Source: an uncultured Planctomycetota bacterium
GTDB taxonomy: Bacteria; Planctomycetota; PLA2; JAEUHO01
Direction: 5' to 3'
Assembly: GCA_963752285.1 (NCBI GenBank)
Contig: CAVVXN010000005.1
Span: 224,001 to 288,000, forward strand
DNA: 64,000 nucleotides
The notes beneath the pieces are model-generated. The model did not search any database. It saw only the letters and a program-made list of their open reading frames with translations, and was not told where the DNA came from. The translations under genes and the position numbers were made by a program. Of this stretch, positions 1-21,846 are shown piece after piece (position 1 is the stretch's first letter; every line of letters begins with the position of its first letter).

Positions 1-1332
1 CTGGACGAGCTCCGCGCGGGCGAGGTGGGGGCCGAGGCGCGCCTCTTCGGCCTGCTCGGGCGCCCGCCGTCCCGCTCGCCGTCACCCGCGATGCACAACG
101 CCGTGTTCCGGTACCTCGACCGGGACGCGGTCTATGTCCCGGTCGAGGACCTGGATCCCGCCGCGGCCCTCGCCCTGCCCTTCGACGGGTTCAGCGTGAC
201 GACGCCCTACAAGGACGAGGCGCTCGGTCTCGCGGACTCGGCCGACGACCGCGCCCGCCGGATCGGCGCCGCGAACACGCTGCTCCGGGGGCCGGCCGGG
301 GGGTGGCACGCTGCGAACACCGACGCGGACGCCGTTGCGGACCTCGTGCCCTCCGCGCCCCCGGGCGCCGGGGCGTTCGTCTACGGAGCGGGCGGCTTCG
401 CGCGCGCCGCGGCGCTCGTGCTCGTCGAGAAGGGCTACGACGTGCGCGTCGGTGGACGCGACACGGAGCGCGCGCTCGCCGTCGCCGAGGCGGTGGGGGC
501 GCGCGCGGCCGGCGACCGGTACGCCCGCGTCGAGTCCGACCGCGTGCTGGTGAACGCGACGCCCGCCGGCGTGCGGGGCGAGGCGCCCTCACCGCTCCTC
601 GCGTCGCCGCTCGCGGGCCTCCTGGTGCTCGACGCCCCGTACGCGGCCGCGGGTCGGCCCACCGGGCTCGCCGTCGCCGCGCGCGCCGCGGGGGCCGAGC
701 TCGTGGACGGAAGGAGCCTTCTCGTGGCGCAGGCGCGCGGCCAGGCGGAGCGCTTCGCCGGCGTCCGCGCGGACGACGGGGTGCTCCGTCTCGCGTGCGA
801 TCCGCCAGAGGCGCTCGTCCTCCTCGGTCTTCGGGGCGCGGGCAAGTCTACGGTCGGGCGCGCGGTCGCCCGACGCCTCGGGCGTCCGTGCCTCGACCTC
901 GACGAGGAGGTGCGTCGCGCTACGGGACGATCGCCCGCCGACTGGATCCGTGACGAAGGCGAGGGTGCGTTCCGCGAGGTCGAGGCCGCCGCGCTGGCGC
1001 GCCACGCCGCGCGGCGTGGACTCGTGATCGCCGCGGGCGGCGGGGTCACGGAGCGCCCGTCCTCGGTTCGCCTGCTCCGGTCCGAGACGTGGCCCGTGTG
1101 GCTCGATCTGCCGGCCGAGGCAGCGGCGGCGCGCGTCCGCGCCTCGGGGGAGGTGCGCCCCCGGCTCGCGGGCACGGCGTCGGAGGAGGAGGAGGCACGG
1201 CTCCTGCTCGCGCGCCGCGCGCCGGCGTGGACGACCCTCGCTCGCGCGCGCGTGGACGCGACCCGGCCCGTCCCCGACGTGGCCCGGCGGATCGCGTCTC
1301 TCTGGGCTTCGAGCCGCGTCCGGTCGCCTTGA
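1..1332 (+). CDS. aroE: Shikimate dehydrogenase-shikimate kinase fusion (AroE-AroK), 5'-truncated by the window edge
   Basis: Frame is open from base 1. AroE motifs SPSPAMHN, GFSVTTPYK, GAANT, NTD, GAGG and VNATP are followed by an AroK P-loop GLRGAGKSTVG, DLD, GEGAFR and GGG. Confidence 0.9.
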   Translation: MDELRAGEVGAEARLFGLLGRPPSRSPSPAMHNAVFRYLDRDAVYVPVEDLDPAAALALPFDGFSVTTPYKDEALGLADSADDRARRIGAANTLLRGPAGGWHAANTDADAVADLVPSAPPGAGAFVYGAGGFARAAALVLVEKGYDVRVGGRDTERALAVAEAVGARAAGDRYARVESDRVLVNATPAGVRGEAPSPLLASPLAGLLVLDAPYAAAGRPTGLAVAARAAGAELVDGRSLLVAQARGQAERFAGVRADDGVLRLACDPPEALVLLGLRGAGKSTVGRAVARRLGRPCLDLDEEVRRATGRSPADWIRDEGEGAFREVEAAALARHAARRGLVIAAGGGVTERPSSVRLLRSETWPVWLDLPAEAAAARVRASGEVRPRLAGTASEEEEARLLLARRAPAWTTLARARVDATRPVPDVARRIASLWASSRVRSP

Positions 1333-12042: not shown

Positions 12043-12489
12043 ATGGTGAAACGAGAGAAGCGCCGGGCGATCCGGGTGGCATGCAGCCTCCCGTTGCGCA
12101 TCCGCACGCGCACGGGATGGCTCGACGTCCGCGTGACGGACCTGAGTCGTCGCGGCCTCAAGCTGACGATCGCCGACGAGAAGGTCGGCGTGCGGGAGAA
12201 CGCGACGGTCCTCGACGTCGCCCGACGGCTGGGCGGCATCCTCCCGGAGAGCATCGAGGCCCACTTCGACCCCGAGGGCACCATCCGCCGGCGGCTGCGC
12301 GTGGTGCGCGTCGGACGCCACGTGGACGACCGCTCCGTCGAGCTGGGTTGCCTGCTCGACGAGGCCCTCGAAGACACGGACGCGGTGCGGCTCGACGTGA
12401 TCCTGCCTCGGGAGGGCGAGACCTGGCAGCAGGCCGAGCGGAGACTCGACTCGGAATCCTCTCCCACCTCCGACCAACCGGCGCGCTGA
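12043..12489 (+). CDS. PilZ domain protein (c-di-GMP receptor-like)
   Basis: EKRRAIR (RxxxR) and DLSRRG (DxSxxG) motifs. Confidence 0.8.
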   Translation: MVKREKRRAIRVACSLPLRIRTRTGWLDVRVTDLSRRGLKLTIADEKVGVRENATVLDVARRLGGILPESIEAHFDPEGTIRRRLRVVRVGRHVDDRSVELGCLLDEALEDTDAVRLDVILPREGETWQQAERRLDSESSPTSDQPAR

Positions 12490-12582
12490 GAGGCCAGTTC
12501 GCGGCCCTTCCTCCTCCTTGCGTGCATTCGCACGCGGCGTCGTCGTCATGGCCACTCCTTTGGCCTCTCAGCGCGCCGGTTG
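12475..12582. repeat. Perfect 22-bp inverted repeat spanning the PilZ stop codon
   Basis: CAACCGGCGCGCTGAGAGGCCA (12475-12496) is the exact reverse complement of TGGCCTCTCAGCGCGCCGGTTG (12561-12582); 64-nt loop. Confidence 0.9.
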
Positions 12583-12596
12583 CGTGCGGACGTTTG

Positions 12597-13373
12597 GGCG
12601 GCGTGGGCTCGCGGGGCCGCCTTTGGCGGCGCCGCATCGCGCGGAGGGGGCGTGCGCTCGCGGCGTCGGCCTTCGGCCTCGCCGCGTTGCGGGGGCGGCG
12701 TGGGCTCGCGGGGCCGCCTTTGGCGGCGCCGCATCGCGCGGAGGGGGCGTGCGCTCGCGGCGTCGGCCTTCGGCCTCGCCGCGTTGCGGGGGCGGCGTGG
12801 GCTCGCGGGGCCGCCTTTGGCGGCGCCGCGTCGCGCGGAGGGGGCGTGCGCTTGCGGCGTCGGCCTTCGGCCTCGCCGCGTTGCGGGGGCGGCGTGGGCT
12901 CGCGGGGCCGCCTTTGGCGGCGCCGCGTCGCGCGGAGGGGGCGTGCGCTTGCGGCGTCGGCCTTCGGCCTCGCCGCGTTGCGGGGGCGGCGTGGGCTCGC
13001 GGGGCCGCCTTTGGCGGCGCCGCATCGCGGGGAGGGGGTCTGCGCTTGCGGCGTCGGCCTTCGGCCTCGCCGCGTTGCGGGGGCGGCGTGGGCTCGCGGG
13101 GCCGCCTTTGGCGGCGCCGCGTCGCTCGGAGGGGACGTGCGCTTGCGGCGTCGGCCTTCGGCCTCGCCGCGTTGCGGGGGCGGCGTGGGCTCGCGGGGCC
13201 GCCTATGGCGGCGCCGCATCGCGCGGGGGGGCGTGCGCTTGCGGCGTCGGCCTTCGGCCTCGCCGCGTTGCGGGGGCGGTGTGGGCTCGCGGGGCCGCCT
13301 TTGGCGGCGCCGCATCGCGCGGGGGGGCGTGCGCTCGCGGCGTCGGCCTTCGGCCTCGCCGCGTTGCGGGGGG
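12597..13373. repeat. Tandem array of 8 x ~97-bp REP/BIME-like palindromic units
   Basis: GCGTGGGCTC recurs at 12601, 12698, 12795, 12892, 12989, 13086, 13183 and 13279 (variant). Each unit has hairpins GCCGCC-TTT-GGCGGC and CGCGGCG-TC-GGCC-TTC-GGCC-T-CGCCGCG. The array lies between convergent genes and has no unique spacers. Confidence 0.95.
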
Positions 13374-13381
13374 GTGGGGGA

Positions 13382-14773
13382 TCAGCGGGCGGGGGTGGGG
13401 GTCCAGTCGTAGGTGGGAAGGGTGCGGCCGTTCTTGAGGTGGAGGCCGTCGGGGGACGTCAGGACGCCGTTCGCGGCGCGTGTGCCGCGGGTCGAGATCG
13501 CCTCTGCGCCGTACGCGGCGAGCGGACGGACTTCGCCCGGTTCCGAGCGGCCGTTGCCGTTCGCGTCCTGCCAGAGCGCGAGACCCTCGATCTCGTGGCC
13601 GCGGAGCCACCCGTCGGCGTCGTCGTCGAGGGCCGCGAGCGCCTCGTAGCCGTCACGGAAGAAGAGCCACCACGTGACCGAGCCGAAGAGCTGCTGCCCC
13701 GAGGTGATCTCGCCCGTCCCGCTCGGGTCCCAGACGAGGAACGCGGCGTCCGCCGAGGGCCACGGCCATGGCTCCGCCGTGCCGTCGCCGTCGAGGTCGA
13801 AGGTCGCCGTCCGGCCCGGCGGGAGGAGCGCGGCGAGCGAGGTGGTCAGGCCGAGGGGAACGAGGATCGGCGTGATCGCCCCGCGGGGCTTCGACTCGAG
13901 CTTTCTCACCGCGTCCTCGACCGCCCTCACCTCCGGCGTGTTCGCTTCCGGGCCGCCGCGCGCCTGCACGAGTCGGACCCACGCCCGGCCGGCCTCGTGG
14001 GCGACGAGCTCCCTCAACCCGAGGACCGGTAGAGACGGCATCGCGAGGTCCTCGGCGATCGCCAGGTCGTAGGCCCGCCGGTACGCCCCGATCGCGACGT
14101 CCTGCCACCACCAGGCGATCACGCTCGCGAGCCGGGCGCGCGCCTCCGGCGACGCCTTCCCGATCGCCGCGTCGAGCCGCGGCCACGCGCGCGGTCCGAG
14201 GGCGGTCAGCGCCTTCGTCGCCTCCTCGCGTGTCGCCGCCGCCTCCGCGTCCAGGCGGTCGATCAGCGCGTCGATCTTCTGGACCTCCTCGCCCGAGAGC
14301 GCTGCCGGCGCCTCGGGCGTCGGAGGACGTACGTCGGGGAAGACCGCGCCCGCTTCCGCCGCGTAGGCGCGGGCCAGGTGGTATGCGGCGTCGTCGGGCG
14401 CGAGCGCGATCGCGCGCGCCGTCTCGCCCATCGCGTGCTCGAGGTGCGAGACGAGCTCCGAGCGCGGGGGCGCCTTGCCGGGGCTGGTCTCCTGGTACGG
14501 CACGTCCACGTCAGGGAGCTTCTGCGGGTCCTCCGCGTCGAGATAGGCGCGGATCTTCGTGCTCTTGTGGACGAGCGCGAGCGTGTGGATCCGCGCGAGG
14601 ACGTAGTGGCCGCGCGCGTCCTCCGGATGCGCCGCGACGAAGCGTCCGACGTTCTCCACGAGCCGGTCCACCGGGACCTCGTCGGGCAGGCGGAACATCG
14701 CGCGGGCTCCGGGCGCGGGAACTACGAGGAAGGCGATCGAGGACACGAGAACGAACCCGGCGCCGTGTCGCAT
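13382..14773 (-). CDS. Exported protein with TPR/HEAT-like N-terminus and a C-terminal Ca-binding domain resembling the FrpC self-processing module
   Basis: GGAGG RBS and signal peptide. C-terminus TPIL...FDLDGDG...W...AFLVWD...ITSGQQLFG...DGYEALAALDDDADG...LWQDANGNG follows the RTX/FrpC SPM-like pattern. Confidence 0.75.
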   Translation of the reverse strand: MRHGAGFVLVSSIAFLVVPAPGARAMFRLPDEVPVDRLVENVGRFVAAHPEDARGHYVLARIHTLALVHKSTKIRAYLDAEDPQKLPDVDVPYQETSPGKAPPRSELVSHLEHAMGETARAIALAPDDAAYHLARAYAAEAGAVFPDVRPPTPEAPAALSGEEVQKIDALIDRLDAEAAATREEATKALTALGPRAWPRLDAAIGKASPEARARLASVIAWWWQDVAIGAYRRAYDLAIAEDLAMPSLPVLGLRELVAHEAGRAWVRLVQARGGPEANTPEVRAVEDAVRKLESKPRGAITPILVPLGLTTSLAALLPPGRTATFDLDGDGTAEPWPWPSADAAFLVWDPSGTGEITSGQQLFGSVTWWLFFRDGYEALAALDDDADGWLRGHEIEGLALWQDANGNGRSEPGEVRPLAAYGAEAISTRGTRAANGVLTSPDGLHLKNGRTLPTYDWTPTPAR

Positions 14774-14916
14774 GAGGCCTCCGCGGCGGCCACGGTACCC
14801 CGGGGCGAGCCCCTTCGCGTCGTGCCCCCCCCCAGGAAGGTCGCTCCGGAGCCTCGGGTGGACCTGGCGGCGAAACGGGCGTCCTTCGGGACGCCGTCCG
14901 TTCGCCGGGCCGGACC

Positions 14917-15981
14917 TCAGTTCCCGCCGCCCTCGCCCGCTCCGTCGGACTTCTTCGCCCCGTCGGCGAAGAGCGCTTCCCATCGGGGGTCCTGGCGCAG
15001 GCTCGCGAGGTCCTCGTCGGCCTTCGCGTTCGCGACGATGTCGTCACGGTCCTCCGCGGGCCACCCGTCGAGCGCGAGCTTCAACACCTTGAACGCGTCG
15101 TCGGTCCGCTTGGCCAGCGCGTACGCACATGCGAGGTTGTAGCGCGCGTTCGGGAGCAGGCGCTCGGGACTCTTGCTCTTCGGCGCGAGTTCCACCGCCT
15201 TCTCCCAGTTCGCGATGCCCTCGTCGAGCCGACGGAGCTTCAGCTCGGCCATGCCGGTCGCGTACGCGAGCTGGAACTTCTGGGCATCGTCGAACCCGTT
15301 CTCTCCCGCGGCCGCCTCGGCGGCCGCGAGGACGCGAAGCGCCGTCTTCGGGTCGGACTCGTCTTGCTCCACGTATCCGTCGCCCGCGGCCAGGAGGACT
15401 TCGGGGTCGGTAAGGGGCTTCTGCAGCTGCCTCGAGGCGACGGTCACGAGCCAGAATCCCTGCTCCTTCGGCTCGACCTGCAGGGCCAGGACGGCGTCCT
15501 TCAGGATCGAGGCCGACGACTCGGTCTTCTCGCCGAGAAACGCGTGGCAGAGGAAGCACTGCCTTCCCCTCGGGTAGACGGCGATGGCGTGGTGCCGCTG
15601 ATCGCCGGACCAGCTCTCCTTCACGTAGAGCATCCACGGGTGGGGGTCCTGGCCTTCCTGCACGTCGGTGGGCTTCTCGTCCCCTTCCCCCACGAGCTTC
15701 TTCACGTGGGCGAACCACTCCGCCGGCGATTTCGCGTCCGCGGATTCCTGGATCAGGATCGCCACCTCGAGACCCTGCGACGTCTTGCCGCCGAACAGCA
15801 GCATGGGTTTCTCGAGCGACGGCTCGTCCACCAGGCCCGGGATCGTGTAGGAGATTCCGAAGTACTGATCGACGTACTTGCCGTTGGAGAAGCCCCGCTC
15901 GATGGAGGGCGCGTCGTCTCCCGCTCGGGCGAGCGTCAGGGGCGCAAGGGCGACGAGCGTGAGCAGGGCGGCGGTTCGCAT
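14917..15981 (-). CDS. Exported protein with C-terminal TPR module
   Basis: GGAGG RBS, signal peptide MRTAALLTLVALAPLTLARA, C-terminal ARYNLACAYAL...ADEDLASLRQDPRW. Confidence 0.8.
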   Translation of the reverse strand: MRTAALLTLVALAPLTLARAGDDAPSIERGFSNGKYVDQYFGISYTIPGLVDEPSLEKPMLLFGGKTSQGLEVAILIQESADAKSPAEWFAHVKKLVGEGDEKPTDVQEGQDPHPWMLYVKESWSGDQRHHAIAVYPRGRQCFLCHAFLGEKTESSASILKDAVLALQVEPKEQGFWLVTVASRQLQKPLTDPEVLLAAGDGYVEQDESDPKTALRVLAAAEAAAGENGFDDAQKFQLAYATGMAELKLRRLDEGIANWEKAVELAPKSKSPERLLPNARYNLACAYALAKRTDDAFKVLKLALDGWPAEDRDDIVANAKADEDLASLRQDPRWEALFADGAKKSDGAGEGGGN

Positions 15982-16104
15982 GGCGACCTCCAGGTGCGAC
16001 TCCGAACCTCGCAGTCTGCCACTGGGCCTCCGGCGCGGGAAGGGAAGCACGCGCGCTCACTCCCGTCCCCCCGCCGTCGAGGCCGGCCAGCCCCCCGCCC
16101 CCGC

Positions 16105-16142
16105 AGGGGGCTCCGCCCCCTCCGCGCCGGCTTCGCCGTCGC
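16105..16142. repeat. Partial (38-bp) copy of the tRNA-associated repeat unit
   Basis: AGGGGGCTCCGCCCCCTCCGCGCCGGCTTCGCCGTCGC is identical to 17307-17344 and to the tandem copies, but lacks the tRNA 3' end. Confidence 0.9.
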
Positions 16143-16644
16143 ACCGCCTTCCCGAAGAAGGGTCTGAACCTCCTCGGGATCGGGGTCGAGCTCACCGTGG
16201 TGGAGGGGGGCTACCGCGCTGCTCGCCCACCAGGACCTCCCGGCGAGCGAGGACTGGTGCACGAGCCACGCGCCGCCCGTCGAGCGGTTCCTCGAGATGC
16301 TCGTCACGAAGTCCCGCTCGGAGACGCTCGCGGTCACGGCGTCGTGGGACCTCGACCGAACCCCGGCGTCGATGAGTACGGCGAGATGGGCTGCAGGGAC
16401 GACTGGGACGTGGATCTGAAACCATAGCTTCCGTTGGATCGGACGACAGGGTTCACACGACGGCTCTCGCGGCGCTCGATCCATCGCGCCAACTGGATGA
16501 CGACAGCCCCTGGAATCGCGAACACCGCCCCATGCACGGCGAGGGCCGACACGATCTGGCGTGGCCGCGGAGCGGATCGTCCCGACCCGACGCGGGCGCC
16601 CTGTCGCCGCCCCGATCCCGCCCGGGGCGCCCGAGGCGCTCGAC

Positions 16645-17097
16645 CTACTGGGGCGCCTGCCCGTCTGCGCCGTACGCGCTCGCGACCTCCTTGCGAACGG
16701 CCTGCGTATCAACACCCGCGCCACGGAGGATCTGGCTGGCGACCCGATCGTCTGCCAGCACGCCCAGAAAGAGGTGTCCTGCGCGGATCTCCGCGTGGTG
16801 CATCCCTTCCGCGGCTTCCATCGACGCCTCCAGGGCGCGCTTCGCGGAAGGTGTGAACGGGAGCTGCCCGTCCGGGATGGGGTCGCCGCCTCGCGGCACG
16901 CGTGCGAGTACGCGCTCGCGCAACGCCGCGCGATCGACACCAAGGCGATCCAGCACCTTCCCAAGGACGGCCCCAGGCTGGCCCAGGCACGCGAGCAGGA
17001 TGTGCTCGGTCCCGATGTAGTCGGTGCGCAGCTCCTGGGCCTCAGCACGTGCGAGACGCATGATCCGCCTGCCCTCGTGGTCCTGATCTCCGACCAT
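16645..17097 (-). CDS. Stand-alone Clp protease N-terminal (Clp_N double repeat) domain protein
   Basis: LARAEAQEL..DYIGTEHILLA and PFTPSAKRALE...HAEIRAGHLFLGVL; no AAA+ domain. Start could be 17097 or 17106. Confidence 0.8.
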   Translation of the reverse strand: MVGDQDHEGRRIMRLARAEAQELRTDYIGTEHILLACLGQPGAVLGKVLDRLGVDRAALRERVLARVPRGGDPIPDGQLPFTPSAKRALEASMEAAEGMHHAEIRAGHLFLGVLADDRVASQILRGAGVDTQAVRKEVASAYGADGQAPQ

Positions 17098-17237
17098 GGA
17101 GCCCATCCTAAGGCGACGGCGTCGTGGGGAGCGAACGCGACGGAGGCGGCCCGTACTCAAGCCCGGCTCCGCCACGACCCCGACGAAGAGGCTCGCGCGC
17201 CGCGGGAGCTGGCGCGCGACGAGCGACGCGAGAAGTG

Positions 17238-17354
17238 TGGTAGCGGCGGTTGGACTTGAACCAACGACCGGTGCCTTCGGCCCCGGTCGAACGACGGGGT
17301 CATGTGAGGGGGCTCCGCCCCCTCCGCGCCGGCTTCGCCGTCGCTACCCCAGGC
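17238..17354 (-). repeat. Isolated 117-bp repeat unit ending in the tRNA-Met 3' end
   Basis: Identical to 18715-18831, 18895-19011 and 19075-19191; its first 32 nt on the + strand equal tRNA bases 19255-19286. Confidence 0.95.
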
Positions 17355-17628
17355 TCATGAATCGGCCCCCCGGTGTTCGCCACGAAGGCGATGAAATGGC
17401 CCCGGGCGGGCGATCGGGCGGACGCAGGCTGGAGGCCAGACGCCCCGGATCATCCCACGAGCGTCCCCCCATTCCGGACGGCGTGCTGGGACGAGTGCTG
17501 GGACGGGCCAGACCTGCTCTCTGTGAGGTGCCCCCCGCGCCCGGATGCGCGCCGGGACGGGCATCCTCGCGCCCGCGCCTCGACCCCGGAGGGGTACGCT
17601 GGTCGCGACGCCCGGGAGCGACGAGCCG

Positions 17629-18069
17629 GTGTGCTACATGCTCTACCTCTGGACCGATAGCCCCGAGGATCTGGGCGCAGTCTCCCTGCCGGGGGTCCGC
17701 TTCGAACGGGTGACCGGCGACGGAGCCGTCCCCGCCTTGCTCGGGCTCGAGCGCGCGGAGACGTGGTTCGTCGCCTCTGCCAGCGGGTGCTCCTGCACGC
17801 TCCGGCACGTGTGCGAGGAGTCCCTCGATCTCGGCTTCGGCGCGCCCGAGGCCTGGTATCCCGAGGATCGGGACGAGATCTCGGCCACGAAGGCCCTCTA
17901 TGACGTCCTCGAGCGACTCGTCGCCGGCGGCTTCGCGGTCACACTCCACGACGGTTGGTGCGACGACGCGGTGGCGCCACCCGCGAGGACGCTCCAGGTC
18001 TCCCTCTCCGAGGTGAGTCGGGACCGTTTTCGCCTCTTCGAGAACACCGCGTTCCGGCTCCGACCGTGA
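17629..18069 (+). CDS. Hypothetical protein (MCYMLYL...GCSCT...FRLFEN)
   Basis: GTG start giving MCYMLYLWTD; protein-like composition with a CSC motif; lies between repeat units. Confidence 0.65.
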   Translation: MCYMLYLWTDSPEDLGAVSLPGVRFERVTGDGAVPALLGLERAETWFVASASGCSCTLRHVCEESLDLGFGAPEAWYPEDRDEISATKALYDVLERLVAGGFAVTLHDGWCDDAVAPPARTLQVSLSEVSRDRFRLFENTAFRLRP

Positions 18070-18190
18070 CCTTCGCTGTCGAGGGCCGTGCGCCCGTAGG
18101 GCGCAGAGGGACACGGCGCCCGCGTGCCGCCACCGGGCGCGGTCCGTCCGTGCCGGGGTCCGGGGCGCCGCGGGGCGCGAGCCTCGTGCG

Positions 18191-18736
18191 TTGCGGAGAG
18201 GCGCCCTGCGGATCGCGCAGCTTTCAGACACCCACGTTGTCATGGACGGGCTCGTCTCTGGGGCCGACAGCGCCCGGGGACTCTCCGTGGCGGTCGCGTA
18301 CCTCGCCGCATGCGCGCCCGCCCCCAACGTCGCGCTCGTCACCGGCGATCTCGTGCACGACGGTCCCGCCGAGGCGTACCGGCGGCCCGCCGACCTGCTC
18401 GGCGGACTCCCGTGTCCGTGGCACGTGATCCCGGGAAACCACGACGATCGTGCGTCGCTGCGCGCCGCACTCCCGGAGCACGCGTACCTGGGATCGTCCG
18501 GGCCGTGCCACTACGCGGTGGGGGACACGGGGCCCCTGCGCCTCGTGGGGCTCGACACGCGGAACGGTGGCGGGTGGCTCGGCCCCGCGCAGCTGTCGTG
18601 GCTCGACGCGCGCCTGGCGGAAAGGGCCAGGCGACCCACCGTCGTCTTCCTCCATCACCATCCCGTGCCGTCGGGGATCGCCGAGATTGACCGGATGGGG
18701 CTGCTCGAAGCCGATGGTAGCGGCGGTTGGACTTGA
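18191..18736 (+). pseudogene. Truncated metallophosphoesterase (CpdA/Icc-like phosphodiesterase)
   Basis: IAQLSDTH, VTGDL, PGNHDD, LDT and FLHHHP motifs are present. The reading frame runs into the repeat at 18715 and stops before the final GHxH motif. No ATG at the expected start. Confidence 0.75.
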
Positions 18737-19254
18737 ACCAACGACCGGTGCCTTCGGCCCCGGTCGAACGACGGGGTCATGTGAGGGGGCTCCGCCCCCT
18801 CCGCGCCGGCTTCGCCGTCGCTACCCCAGGCGTGGGGTCGTTGGCGGCGCGACGGGATCCGGACGACGCGCTCGTCCGAGCGACGCGAGAAGTGTGGTAG
18901 CGGCGGTTGGACTTGAACCAACGACCGGTGCCTTCGGCCCCGGTCGAACGACGGGGTCATGTGAGGGGGCTCCGCCCCCTCCGCGCCGGCTTCGCCGTCG
19001 CTACCCCAGGCGTGGGGTCGTTGGCGGCGCGACGGGATCCGGACGACGCGCTCGTCCGAGCGACGCGAGAAGTGTGGTAGCGGCGGTTGGACTTGAACCA
19101 ACGACCGGTGCCTTCGGCCCCGGTCGAACGACGGGGTCATGTGAGGGGGCTCCGCCCCCTCCGCGCCGGCTTCGCCGTCGCTACCCCAGGCGTGGGGTCG
19201 TTGGGGACGCGATCGGTACGGGCGGGGCCGGCACGACGAATGAAGCGAGAGGGA
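18715..19254 (-). repeat. Three 180-bp tandem units directly downstream of tRNA-Met, each carrying the tRNA 3' 32 nt
   Basis: TGGTAGCGGCGGTTGGACTTGAACCAACGACC at 18715, 18895, 19075 and 19255 (exact 180-bp period). Units 1 and 2 are identical; unit 3 differs in its 50 nt at 19205-19254. Confidence 0.97.
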
Positions 19255-19331
19255 TGGTAGCGGCGGTTGGACTTGAACCAACGACCCCACGCTTATGAAG
19301 CGTGTGCTCTAACCGGCTGAGCTACGCCGCC
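19255..19331 (-). tRNA. tRNA-Met (CAT), probably elongator
   Basis: GGCGGCGTAGCTCAGCCGGTTAGAGCACACGCTTCATAAGCGTGGGGTCGTTGGTTCAAGTCCAACCGCCGCTACCA folds as a full cloverleaf with CAT anticodon and encoded CCA. It lacks the initiator GGG/CCC anticodon stem; Ile2 is not fully excluded. Confidence 0.93.
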
Positions 19332-19348
19332 GTTCGGTCGGGCGGGTG

Positions 19349-19377
19349 ACGGTAGCCCCTCCTTCGCGGGCGGTCAA
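19349..19377 (-). promoter_or_regulatory. Sigma70-type promoter of tRNA-Met
   Basis: Minus strand TTGACC-17 nt-TACCGT, ending 17 nt before the tRNA 5' end. Confidence 0.7.
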
Positions 19378-19450
19378 GGCGAGCGGGCGGCGTCGGGAGG
19401 TGGGCCGCGCGGGGGGGGGCGGGCCGCGCGCTGGTCGATCCGGCGCGTGC

Positions 19451-20482
19451 TCAGGCCTTCGGGGCTCTCGCGCCGACAGCGGGGGCGTCGGGTGTGGGGG
19501 CGGGGACCTTCGGGTGGGGACGCACGTGGGGGTTCGGGCCCGCGGTCGCCGGCATCTCCGGCGGCCGGACGACGAGCACGGCGTCGCCCGCGCCCCGGTC
19601 CTCCTCGGTGAACGGCAGCGCGGGGTCGTCCTCCATCTGCATCACGAGCAGGGCGGTCCGGTCGTTCGGGCGACGCTCCCGGAACTTCGTGAGGGTCCCG
19701 AGGTCGCCCTCGACGTGGAAGGCGCCGACGACGAGCAGCACCCGCGTGTCGGGATGGGTGTCGCGGTACGCGGCGATGCGACCTCCCATCGCGTCGTCCC
19801 ACAGCGACTGCGCACGGAAGTACGGTTCGCCCCGTTCTTTCCCCATGAGCTTCAGGAACCGATCGTGGTACGCGTCCTTCGGCGTCGACGTGTGGTCGGG
19901 CAGCCACGCACGCTCCTGGGGCGCGAGCGAGGCGAGGTACTCGTCGTACGTGCCCTCGAACTTCCGGTATTCGCTGACGAGGCGACGCGGGGCGTTGGCC
20001 GACAGCACGGGGATGCCGTGCGCCTTCGCGAACTCGACGAGTGGGCCGTGCGTCTTCGGATAGGTCTTCGAACGCTGCGTCTTCTTCCGGAACGTCGGCT
20101 CGTCGAGCTTCCCGGCCAGATAGAGGTCGAGGTCGGACTGCTGGTCCGCCTCGAAGAACTCCATCGCGAGCGCCAGGGGGCGACCCGAACGCGCGAGACC
20201 CTCGAGCACCTGGAGCTCGTAGCGGGCGCCCACGGGATGGTCGTGGAGCTCGCCGAACGCCACGAAGTCGGCCCCGGCGGCGCGGCCGAGGAACGTGGCG
20301 AGCGAGATCGGGCGTCCCGTGCGGCCGTCGTAGAGCGCGGCCTCCTCGGGATGCGTGGGGGTGGGCCGAGGGGTGACCATGGCGGTCGGCGGGCAGGGGG
20401 GGCAGCAGCGCCGCGGGGGACACGCGCAGGCCGTGAGGAGGGACGCGAGGACCAGGACGCCGAGCTCGACGGGGATGCGCAT
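19451..20482 (-). CDS. ChaN family (Tiki superfamily, haem-uptake-like) lipoprotein
   Basis: Lipobox LTAC; FVAFGELHDHP, LAMEFFE, ANAPR, AQSLWDDAM, VGAFH motifs. Confidence 0.85.
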   Translation of the reverse strand: MRIPVELGVLVLASLLTACACPPRRCCPPCPPTAMVTPRPTPTHPEEAALYDGRTGRPISLATFLGRAAGADFVAFGELHDHPVGARYELQVLEGLARSGRPLALAMEFFEADQQSDLDLYLAGKLDEPTFRKKTQRSKTYPKTHGPLVEFAKAHGIPVLSANAPRRLVSEYRKFEGTYDEYLASLAPQERAWLPDHTSTPKDAYHDRFLKLMGKERGEPYFRAQSLWDDAMGGRIAAYRDTHPDTRVLLVVGAFHVEGDLGTLTKFRERRPNDRTALLVMQMEDDPALPFTEEDRGAGDAVLVVRPPEMPATAGPNPHVRPHPKVPAPTPDAPAVGARAPKA

Positions 20483-20595
20483 GGCCGGGAGCATCCCAGA
20501 GACCCTCCCCAGGGTCCACCCTGGGACCGGACACCGGGTCGGACCCGCCCGTGGACCGCGCGCCGCGCGTCGGGCCGCGAGGGTACGCTTGGCCG

Positions 20596-21114
20596 ATGGC
20601 CCGGCTCCTCCTCGTCGATGCGTACAACGCCATGTTCCGGCTGTGGCCCGATGCCCCGGCCGACCGTGACCAGGCGCGCCGCATGCTCGTCACGGCGGCC
20701 GAGGAGGCGCTGCGCGTGTCGGAGGTGGCGCGCGGCGACGATCGCGTGCTCCTGGTCTTCGACGCGCATCCGGGAGCGGAGCGTGCGGGCCTCCAGGGGC
20801 GGGGAGGCCGCGTGTCCTGGCGGTACGCCCGCGGTTCCGCCGACGACGAGATCCTCGAGCACCTGCGACGTGGCGAGGGGAGCGCCGGGAACGTCGTCGT
20901 CGTGACCGACGACCGCGAGCTCAAGGGACGTGCCCGCCAGCTCGGCGCCTCGACGGCGAGCGTGGGGGACCTCTTCCGGGGGCCGCGGCGTCTCGCGACG
21001 CCCGACGCCCCGCCGCGCGGGGCGCCCGTCGGCCCGCCCCTCGGGCCGACCGACTTCGACCTGCCCGCCGGAGAGATCGACCTCACCGATCCGGACCTGG
21101 AGGACCTCGCGTAG
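20596..21114 (+). CDS. NYN domain (YacP-like PIN-fold) protein
   Basis: LLVDAYN, LVFDA, SADDEI, VVVTDDREL motifs. Confidence 0.82.
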   Translation: MARLLLVDAYNAMFRLWPDAPADRDQARRMLVTAAEEALRVSEVARGDDRVLLVFDAHPGAERAGLQGRGGRVSWRYARGSADDEILEHLRRGEGSAGNVVVVTDDRELKGRARQLGASTASVGDLFRGPRRLATPDAPPRGAPVGPPLGPTDFDLPAGEIDLTDPDLEDLA

Positions 21115-21330: not shown

Positions 21331-21846
21331 ATGAGCACGAAGAGCAGGATCGTGCACACGCTGATCGACCGCGGCTTCCTCGAGGAACACACGGTCCGCG
21401 AAATCCTCGAGCCGGCCTTCTGGTCGGTGAACGTCCACGACGGGCCCGAGGCCTACGAGAGGACCCTGCGCCGCTTCACCCGGCACCAGCGGCTCCTCCT
21501 CGCCGTCCAGTGGTACCGCTCCGAGGTGAACAACGGCGGCCACTGGCAATTCTACGTGAACCACACCTGCGTGGTCGTGCGGGACGCGCAGGACGGCCTC
21601 GACCTCCTGGCGCTCCCGGAGCACGTGTTGATCCTCCGCGAGTCGATCGCGCGCCTCGGCCAGGCGGTGCCGCTCGGCGGCGACCTCGTGTCGCGTGCGC
21701 AGTCCGTTCCCGACTTCGACGACCTGGACGAACGCTACTACGCGCTCGATCGGCGCTACGACGTGGAGGCACGGATGCTCCGCTTCATCCGCCTCCATCC
21801 CGACGAGTTCACGTTCGAGGGGCTCGTCGAGCACTTCCTGCCGTAG
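21331..21846 (+). CDS. DMP19/DUF4375 family protein
   Basis: GGAGG RBS; EVNNGGHWQFYVN motif and FDDLDERYY...FIRLHPDEF. Confidence 0.75.
   Translation: MSTKSRIVHTLIDRGFLEEHTVREILEPAFWSVNVHDGPEAYERTLRRFTRHQRLLLAVQWYRSEVNNGGHWQFYVNHTCVVVRDAQDGLDLLALPEHVLILRESIARLGQAVPLGGDLVSRAQSVPDFDDLDERYYALDRRYDVEARMLRFIRLHPDEFTFEGLVEHFLP

Follow-up and report, generated by a model that had tools for sequence, protein, structure and literature searches.

tRNA genes are classic landing sites of mobile DNA, and where a tRNA end is found duplicated, an integrase is routinely taken to have left it. Here we describe an array of short repeats, each full unit ending in a copy of a tRNA 3′ end, in a 64,000-nt stretch of DNA (the window) from an uncultured Planctomycetota bacterium whose genome, G000, comprises 4.64 Mb in five contigs. 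The array is anchored on the sole tRNA gene of the window (ARAGORN), a tRNA-Met(CAT) for elongator Met or Ile2 with an encoded CCA (19255-19331, minus strand; 70 bits with the Rfam tRNA model). Throughout, "module" denotes the conserved double-hairpin part of a repeat, "unit" the module plus the tRNA 3′ end, and "trailer" the DNA between the tRNA CCA end and the next unit.

Read on the tRNA strand, the tRNA is followed by a 63-nt trailer, three units, a 1360-bp block, a fourth unit, a 1095-bp block and a 38-nt fragment. Trailer A (63 nt; 19192-19254, minus) leads from the tRNA to unit 1 (117 nt; 19075-19191, minus), and units 1-3 stand head-to-tail with a 180-nt period, trailer B plus unit 2 (19012-19074 and 18895-19011, minus) being identical at 180/180 positions to trailer B plus unit 3 (18832-18894 and 18715-18831, minus). 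Unit 4 (117 nt; 17238-17354, minus) is 100% identical to units 1-3, and a partial unit (38 nt; 16105-16142, minus) retains hairpin A and hairpin B only, with both flanks replaced. The initial annotation of this locus, made from the sequence, had counted four identical 117-bp units, three of them with a 180-bp period, and a 38-bp partial copy, and this count was recovered independently. The repeat search returned the 38-nt core in five 100%-identical copies (16105, 17307, 18784, 18964 and 19144) and a 180-nt repeat family at 17238, 18715, 18895 and 19075, and the whole-genome search gave 117/117 identity at 17238-17354 and 180/180 for the two tandem copies. Four exact 117-nt copies make a chance origin impossible.

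Each unit closes with the last 32 nt of the tRNA, from the base before the T-stem through CCA, as had been recognised at the outset and as both the sequence and the repeat search bear out; in unit 1 this tRNA-derived T-arm, acceptor strand and CCA occupies 19075-19106. Upstream of it, unit 1 consists of GGGGTAG, hairpin A (19163-19180, plus-strand numbering), hairpin B (19143-19161) and two more hairpins. The 85 nt that precede the tRNA part had been taken for a palindromic module; when folded, they form a row of hairpins in each unit instead. The trailer beside the tRNA diverges from the other two (the 180-nt copy at 19075 is 87% identical), and all three trailers contain a 15-nt inverted copy of the tRNA's anticodon-stem, variable and T-stem sequence (19190-19204, 19010-19024 and 18830-18844). 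Unit 4 lacks the inverted tRNA piece upstream, and of trailer B only 18 nt come after it. A promoter and terminator consensus scan of 16000-19500 returned no site of either kind.

Cargo block 1 (17355-18714, 1360 bp) extends from directly after the CCA of unit 3 to the module of unit 4. It holds a hypothetical open reading frame (ORF) of no Pfam family (17545-18069, plus) and a 3′-truncated Metallophos gene (18191-18736, plus), both antisense to the array; the Metallophos match spans profile positions 1-161 of 191, and the gene's 3′ part is cut exactly where the CCA end of unit 3 begins. Cargo block 2 (16143-17237, 1095 bp) carries a Clp_N-domain gene (16645-17175, minus; Pfam E 2.9e-24) in the same orientation as the tRNA, with paralogues at 34-50% identity elsewhere in G000. 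In the Pfam scan these three reading frames spanned 17545-18066, 18191-18733 and 16648-17175. The earlier calls of a hypothetical gene, a truncated phosphodiesterase and a Clp_N gene therefore agree with Pfam, as does the reported lack of a recombinase nearby: the window yielded no PF00589 or PF01797 match, and its 41 scanned ORFs included no recombinase or transposase family.

For comparison we used 29 genomes of the family (G000 and 28 others) and a wider set of 60 relatives. Cargo block 1 is single-copy in G000, and because the Metallophos fragment is matched in 0/28 other family genomes and the hypothetical ORF in 1/28, weakly, the block is foreign to the family. It is present at 99-100% identity in four wetland DNA runs, where one contig stops exactly at the last base before unit 3. 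The contigs from these runs are short and of low depth, leaving parts of the stretch without cover, and one (depth 4.6) contains a joint that "goes back 180", which is ambiguous, as the assembler's word length is close to that of the 32-nt shared block. No RNA run was listed as containing the locus.

tRNA-end repeats in the genome, its sister species and the order

ARAGORN predicts 63 tRNAs in G000, and the duplicated tRNA 3′ ends of this genome form two classes. The first comprises integrase islands, at tRNA-Gly(CCC) with seven copies, a second tRNA-Met (on contig C1), tRNA-Asn and tRNA-Arg(CCT), whose repeats lie 10-60 kb apart with integrase matches nearby, span about 50 nt starting in the anticodon stem and are without the module. 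The second comprises short-period arrays, at the tRNA-Met described here, tRNA-Pro(CGG) (units at +211, +444 and +444), tRNA-Pro(GGG) (a unit at +444) and tRNA-Val(GAC) (149-nt period, 5.1 copies). Both Pro arrays bear the GGGGTAG/GTAG module and are ~94% identical to each other including the first trailer, although the tRNAs themselves and the DNA upstream of them differ. The Val units bear no GTAG tags, just a G6/C6 hairpin similar to hairpin B together with an inverted piece of the T-arm. The 180-nt unit of the Met array itself has no further occurrence in the 4.64-Mb genome. The tRNA-Met array belongs to a class distinct from the integrase-bearing islands of G000.

Two side observations concern these loci. 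The seven copies of the tRNA-Gly(CCC) 3′ half (G000:C1:509-64613, C2:8995 and C3:15163) have several integrase matches between them, as in a tandem-island pile-up, and since copies lie near three contig ends, the assembly may break at these islands. The tRNA-Pro units (G000:C5:2005903-2007300 and G000:C4:53400-54124; loci L095 and L096) come in a short 211-nt and a long 444-nt form, the long one having ~233 nt inserted in the hairpin B loop; as tRNA-Pro 3′ ends in genome G009 are spaced 223 and 442 nt, this insertion polymorphism may be old or itself mobile.

The sister species of the same genus, G001, is the only one of the 60 relatives with full-length matches to the unit, so the genome-wide search proposed in the initial annotation found the complete unit in a relative and not elsewhere in G000. 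The orthologous tRNA-Met of G001 has the same ChaN-like gene upstream; downstream of it come two identical units, repeating every 183 nt, and then a partial one, with no cargo between them. These units bear the T-stem variant GGTGG/CCACC of G001's own tRNA, and therefore units and tRNA evolve in concert. Between the two species identity is 30/32 in the tRNA part, 67/86 in the module and 30/66 in the trailer, and hairpin A shows paired changes (CGGC/GCCG vs GGCC/GGCC). The Met array is common to both species and is inherited; within the genus, Pro arrays were found in G000 only and the Ala array in G001 only.

Beyond the array the two genomes differ. By tblastx, they are colinear until window position ~12444 and again from the tRNA onward, and the DNA between these edges is unrelated (~6.8 kb in G000, ~3.6 kb in G001). 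The remainder of this species-variable segment, between the array and the conserved flank (12445-16104), has no counterpart in the syntenic region of G001 by tblastx; in Pfam scans of the segment, a TPR protein (14920-15981, minus) and a 533-aa protein (13385-14983, minus) were recorded. On the other side, 1-2 kb upstream of tRNA-Met, lie a YacP-like NYN ribonuclease-domain gene (20551-21111, plus) and a DMP19-like gene (21331-21843, plus), for which no link to the array was seen. Elsewhere in the window, an ORF at 25-1329 (plus) combines shikimate dehydrogenase N-terminal and shikimate kinase domains (Pfam) and may be a fused aroE-aroK.

Related genomes carry further arrays of this kind. Two or more closely spaced tRNA-Pro 3′ ends lie on one contig in 11/29 family genomes, and units from six genera share one anatomy: from CCA through a trailer (often with an intrinsic-terminator-like hairpin), a C-run and an inverted T-arm copy of up to 23 nt, and on through G4-6 plus TAG, hairpin A, (C)GTAG with the G5 hairpin B, a variable part, T-arm and acceptor strand to the next CCA. 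In these genomes the tRNA genes with arrays are those for Pro, Ile, Ala, Val and Met; genes for Gly, Arg, Asp and Thr have the module on its own. G013 has two units between tRNA-Ile and tRNA-Ala and also modules or arrays at tRNA-Pro(TGG) and tRNA-Arg(ACG), and the Ala array of G001 is at tRNA-Ala(GGC). Arrays or modules likewise follow tRNA-Gly(CCC) in G018, tRNA-Met in G017 and one metagenome contig, tRNA-Val(CAC) in G028, tRNA-Val(GAC) in a second metagenome contig, and tRNA-Asp, tRNA-Thr and tRNA-Val in G026, G027 and G002. In three genomes a nearly identical module variant occurs after genes for Asp, Thr and Val, interspersed with pieces of acceptor and anticodon arm in inverted orientation. 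In the other arrays analysed, the units are tandem copies without cargo.

The link to tRNA ends is tight. A T-arm lies within 330 nt in 35/39 distinct module contexts, against a background of 0.004 T-arm-like sites per 330 nt per strand: 24 contexts have a sense T-arm 40-112 nt downstream, five an antisense T-arm only, downstream, six a sense T-arm upstream only (terminal or cut-off units) and four none. All 10 hairpin-type pattern matches in G000 fall within three tRNA arrays. In a scan of 251 genomes of the phylum with a more specific pattern, whose listed matches were interpreted by manual reading, hairpin-type matches were present in 5/13 sampled genomes of the order, with at most one clear match outside it. 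Over metagenomes, a strict genus-specific pattern returned 0 loci and a looser one two, neither from the species of G000. tRNAs of many specificities, from two families of the order, have the module beside them, and the tRNA-Met array is a member of an order-wide repeat family on tRNA 3′ flanks. The full-text literature searched, whose coverage excludes most subscription journals, contained no description of such a tRNA-linked family.

These results uphold the initial view that the locus does not represent a single prophage scar: other tRNAs, at the Pro genes of G000 and in relatives, have the module attached to their own 3′ ends, and the G001 array differs in copy number and cargo. None of the outcomes that the initial annotation had set against itself, such as identical cargo and copy number in all relatives, was seen.

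Structure of the module

The constant part of the module consists of GGGGTAG, hairpin A, (C)GTAG or GGAG, and a G5/C5 hairpin B, as G+C-rich stem-loops arranged head-to-tail. Hairpin A is preceded by GGGGTAG or GGGGAAG, both of which the search pattern allowed and which were not counted apart; hairpin B begins GTAGGGGG in 30/39 distinct modules and GGAGGGGG in 9/39. Between G000 and G001 hairpin A covaries and the base of hairpin B is conserved in sequence; the closing pairs of hairpin B are UAG..CUG in Pro/Ile-type and GAG..CUC in Met-type modules. Stems are 98% Watson-Crick on both strands (675 Watson-Crick and 16 G·U pairs in sense, 681 and 11 in antisense), and the G·U-pair test shows only a weak strand bias, too small to favour either strand. 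Relative to the tRNA, the module can point either way.

Folded at minimum energy, the unit keeps an unpaired ACCA tail; the z-score of the fold is -1.63. A consensus fold of seven units retains hairpin B, the T-arm and a 3-bp contact only, and neither a cloverleaf nor an acceptor-closing stem common to the units emerged from it. Units had no Rfam match at E<=1, the tRNA model included; one G013 unit was called a 103-nt tRNA by ARAGORN. The 13 unit periods recorded are 180, 183, 184, 211, 444, 149, 150, 266, 279, 200, 280, 242 and 300 nt, and because 8/13 are not multiples of 3, the units are non-coding, with no conserved small ORF.

Hairpins that resemble the module in part are common. Other GGGGGC..GCCCCC hairpins among 38 matches in G000, and nearly all of its 82 GTAG-plus-hairpin matches, are unrelated to the module, and a match in G007 (L014) was a chance one inside a coding region. 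A scan of species representatives (66 loci) returned mostly GTAG double hairpins of a generic kind, from Polyangiaceae, Rhodobacterales, Opitutales and others, which we set aside as look-alike repetitive extragenic palindromes (REPs); since their neighbouring genes are mutually unrelated, they have no conserved partner gene. A Polyangiaceae metagenome-assembled genome, Chondromyces and Byssovorax (e.g. L033, L038 and L049; scan loci L027-L092) contain GTAG double hairpins by the dozen, dispersed and arranged head-to-tail. Short tandem repeats of the CGGCCCTGCCG type often come after them, and many lie 10-25 nt from the start of an opposite-strand gene; they form a large REP-like family with the same motif and no tRNA link. 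The distant planctomycete G265 has five copies, on different contigs, of a separate dispersed repeat that starts GGGGTAGGTTTACTCTGCCACTT and ends CGTAGGGGG. Four viral loci (L201, L203, L205 and L206; GC ~0.39-0.40) have a conserved ~80-nt pattern match inside a phage tRNA cluster; in two contigs the stretch lies between tRNA-Cys and tRNA-Met, and it may be a separate structured element.

Origin of the arrays

What is established is the anatomy of the array, the existence of its family, the tight tRNA link, the way arrays turn over from one species to another, the foreign origin of cargo block 1 and the lack of an adjacent recombinase. We tentatively favor, at a probability of about 0.45, a REP-like palindromic family that is specialised on tRNA 3′ flanks, has been amplified along with adjacent DNA through recombination between repeats and catches foreign DNA incidentally. 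The module, which in each locus is fused to the T-arm, acceptor strand and CCA of the neighbouring tRNA and in most cases also to an inverted stretch of that tRNA, would act as a DNA element; the block of tRNA 3′ end, trailer and module is then reiterated in tandem. Unequal crossing-over and gene conversion between units and tRNA would let arrays grow, shrink and stay uniform, and spread to other tRNA genes could use the shared or near-universal T-arm as homology or microhomology. Foreign DNA might become trapped at recombination-prone units, for example by a single crossover with a unit-bearing circle, which could account for the two cargo blocks of the array. A cellular role is conceivable, be it in termination, in the protection of RNA 3′ ends or as a topological site. 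Behavior as DNA is suggested because stems are Watson-Crick on both strands, modules occur in both orientations, the same variant stands at different tRNAs, arrays are gained and lost between congeners, and cargo block 1 is foreign. The initial annotation had gone further and proposed a cassette-like DNA capture locus: the foreign cargo block 1 agrees with capture as such, but the empty arrays elsewhere, the truncated or antisense cargo and the lack of an adjacent recombinase leave a dedicated cassette-capture system unsupported.

Several observations weigh against a REP-like family. The module is low-copy and not dispersed in G000, unlike classical REPs, and neither an enzyme nor a mechanism was found for it. 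A link to REP-associated tyrosine transposases (RAYTs), or to a REPtron, was tried and rejected: 0/30 Y1 loci in the order have the module within 1.5 kb, the array-bearing genomes G001 and G013 have no Y1 match, and the inverted repeats around the only RAYT-like gene of G000 are unrelated to the module. Cargo limits are sharp, exactly after CCA and exactly at the module, and the repeated block starts at the T-stem, as a T-loop-targeting recombinase would leave it. The sense strand folds slightly better in 27/37 modules. The tRNA-Ile and tRNA-Ala genes, between which G013 has its two units, are 14 nt apart in G000, and because they are lodged between such closely spaced genes, the G013 units are probably transcribed; no rRNA was found in the 3-kb G013 locus, and an rRNA-operon context was dropped. 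Finally, the strong sequence conservation of GGGGTAG and CGTAGGGGG, which plain recombination does not explain, suggests a specific binding partner. Because this implied partner was not found, sites of recombination in trans and a structured RNA are retained as less probable readings.

The RAYT-like gene of G000 encodes a 321-aa RAYT/TIRYT-like Y1 protein (G000:C1:~102900-104100; L173), which we take to contain HUH and YIHDNP-type motifs. Two copies of an inverted repeat of its own precede it and one follows. This locus resembles the "TIRtron" of PMC3733652.

In one of these other readings, which we consider unlikely, the units are attP-like sites (hairpin arm, T-loop core and trailer) at which a tyrosine integrase of the T-loop class, or an Xer-like enzyme, acts from another place in the genome, and units and unit-flanked cargo move as circles, in the manner of cis-mobilizable elements, IMEX/pdif modules or integron cassettes. 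The repeated block of 25-32 nt, from T-stem to CCA, resembles the core of T-loop-targeting integrases; the unit length of 150-280 nt is that of an attP; terminator-like hairpins often come directly after CCA, as in tRNA-restoring elements; and arrays are common to two tRNA-Pro genes with the same 3′ half. The mycobacteriophage Ms6 is reported to integrate in a tRNA-Ala T-loop (PMC1762012). Together with the exact limits of the foreign cargo block 1, these features would suit site-specific recombination, and candidate enzymes exist: G000 has 12 PF00589 matches, all outside the window. The nearest on the array's contig is, however, >800 kb away, and no integrase lies within 30 kb of the four arrays of G000 or of 17 module loci in G001, G009, G013, G020 and G027, several of whose contigs are short; the closest integrase on a contig shared with a module locus in the relatives is at 34 kb. 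The search for recombinases and RAYTs suggested in the initial annotation thus yielded candidates in the genome, and none beside the module. Nor did the viral contigs contain a module-bearing autonomous element: none of their 15 pattern loci has an adjacent T-arm with CCA, and no parent element was found. That arrays end in partial units without the core, that the module can be inverted relative to the core and that most units have no cargo also count against recombination in trans. A related proposal, that the units are a new kind of non-autonomous mobile element homing to tRNA T-arms, its module recognised by an enzyme encoded elsewhere and copied or recombined onto the T-arm-to-CCA end of the adjacent tRNA, and growing in tandem, flipping, hopping and capturing foreign DNA, we regard as doubtful.

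It also seems improbable that the units are primarily a transcribed structured RNA, an rtT-like or tRNA-like decoy or processing element that is co-transcribed with the tRNA and cut at the tRNA-like 3′ ends, although a module acting as RNA bound by a conserved factor could coexist with a role at the DNA level. The conservation of the module, but not the trailer, between species would suit such an RNA, as would the covariation of hairpin A and the change of the closing pairs of hairpin B between module types. Most modules are co-oriented with the tRNA, the slight advantage of the sense fold points the same way, and the free ACCA tail and the G013 unit called a tRNA fit a tRNA-like end; within the tRNA-Ile/tRNA-Ala pair of G013 the units are without terminator-like hairpins. 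These points are offset by the near absence of G·U pairing, the weak strand bias and the five antisense cases, by the lack of an Rfam match, the z-score of only -1.63 and the missing common closing stem, and by the gain and loss of arrays between congeners. In several genera, moreover, terminator-like hairpins right after the tRNA would stop read-through.

That the repeats are inert debris, decayed attachment-site scars of tRNA islands or prophages duplicated by chance, is very unlikely. tRNA genes are indeed integration hot spots in G000, with Gly, Met, Asn and Arg islands near integrase matches, and the segment downstream of tRNA-Met is wholly different between the sister species; but the same module stands at tRNAs of many specificities in two families, conserved where trailers are not, and the real island scars of G000 look different. 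Exact tandem repeats are error-prone in assembly and one low-depth contig "goes back 180", but the array is a real repeat array and a collapsed or expanded repeat has next to no likelihood, given the same architecture with its own variants in the independent G001, such arrays in many other genomes, and the wetland contigs that independently cover cargo block 1, one reaching the last base before unit 3.

Taken together, G000 holds ordinary integrase footprints and a separate second class of tRNA-end repeats with a conserved module. Should a dedicated activity move or recombine the units, tRNA genes would be capturing genes by a new route; should the units be RNAs, they would constitute a new tRNA-linked RNA family. 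Either way the arrays confuse island-finding and tRNA annotation, and they may help explain short-read contig breaks at tRNA loci, because several short-read contigs end inside such an array.

Comparison with known systems

The units of the window are unlike a tRNA or tRNA-like gene in that neither the Rfam tRNA model nor ARAGORN recognises them. As in an integrative element at a tRNA, the tRNA 3′ part is directly repeated, here as a 32-nt block from T-stem to CCA that is repeated five times, but the array has no integrase in or beside it, and the islands of G000 have their crossover region in the anticodon stem and are without the module. Integron cassettes and Xer-dependent pdif modules offer another comparison: in both, imperfect palindromic sites bracket small unrelated cargo, and in pdif the recombinase is encoded elsewhere and the sites are invertible. 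The array shares with them palindromic sites around small unrelated cargo. Unlike in integrons, no IntI lies beside the array, the cargo is truncated or antisense rather than made of promoterless co-oriented ORFs, and the site is built from a T-arm.

Tandem accretion at tRNA attachment sites, and cis-mobilizable elements (CIMEs) in particular, leave recombinase-less DNA between direct repeats of a tRNA 3′ end. Here too, DNA with few genes or no recombinase lies past an intact tRNA between direct repeats of the tRNA's 3′ part, but no integrase-bearing partner with the module was found, and the units, at 150-450 nt, are mostly empty.

The E. coli tyrT-rtT locus comes close in layout, with 3.14 tandem repeats of 178 bp, each ending in the tRNA-Tyr 3′ end; an rtT-type repeat has a small basic ORF (Tpr). 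A literature search for rtT/tyrT returned nothing relevant. In both loci the tRNA is followed by ~180-nt tandem units that end in a tRNA 3′ segment with CCA, and the array ends in a partial copy. Unlike tyrT-rtT, which is one locus of one species, the arrays described here share a module at many tRNAs across an order, contain inverted tRNA pieces and trapped foreign DNA, and have no conserved small ORF.

The closest parallels to the module itself are the GTAG REPs. As surveyed by PMC3733652, these carry GTAG at the foot of a G+C-rich stem-loop of 20-60 nt, are intergenic, have covarying stems and occur in the Planctomycetes-Verrucomicrobia-Chlamydiae (PVC) group, and REP clusters can be reiterated in tandem with flanking DNA in the manner of bacterial interspersed mosaic elements (BIMEs). 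The module has the same GTAG tag at the foot of a G+C-rich stem-loop, the covarying stems and the intergenic position, and the arrays resemble REP clusters in their tandem reiteration, with periods of 149-444 nt, each spanning tRNA 3′ end and trailer. They differ from REP/RAYT systems in that no RAYT gene is flanked by the module (0/30) and some array genomes are without a Y1 match. Unlike GTAG REPs, finally, the module is low-copy and undispersed, is paired head-to-tail, stands almost always beside a tRNA 3′ end and is fused to pieces of that tRNA.

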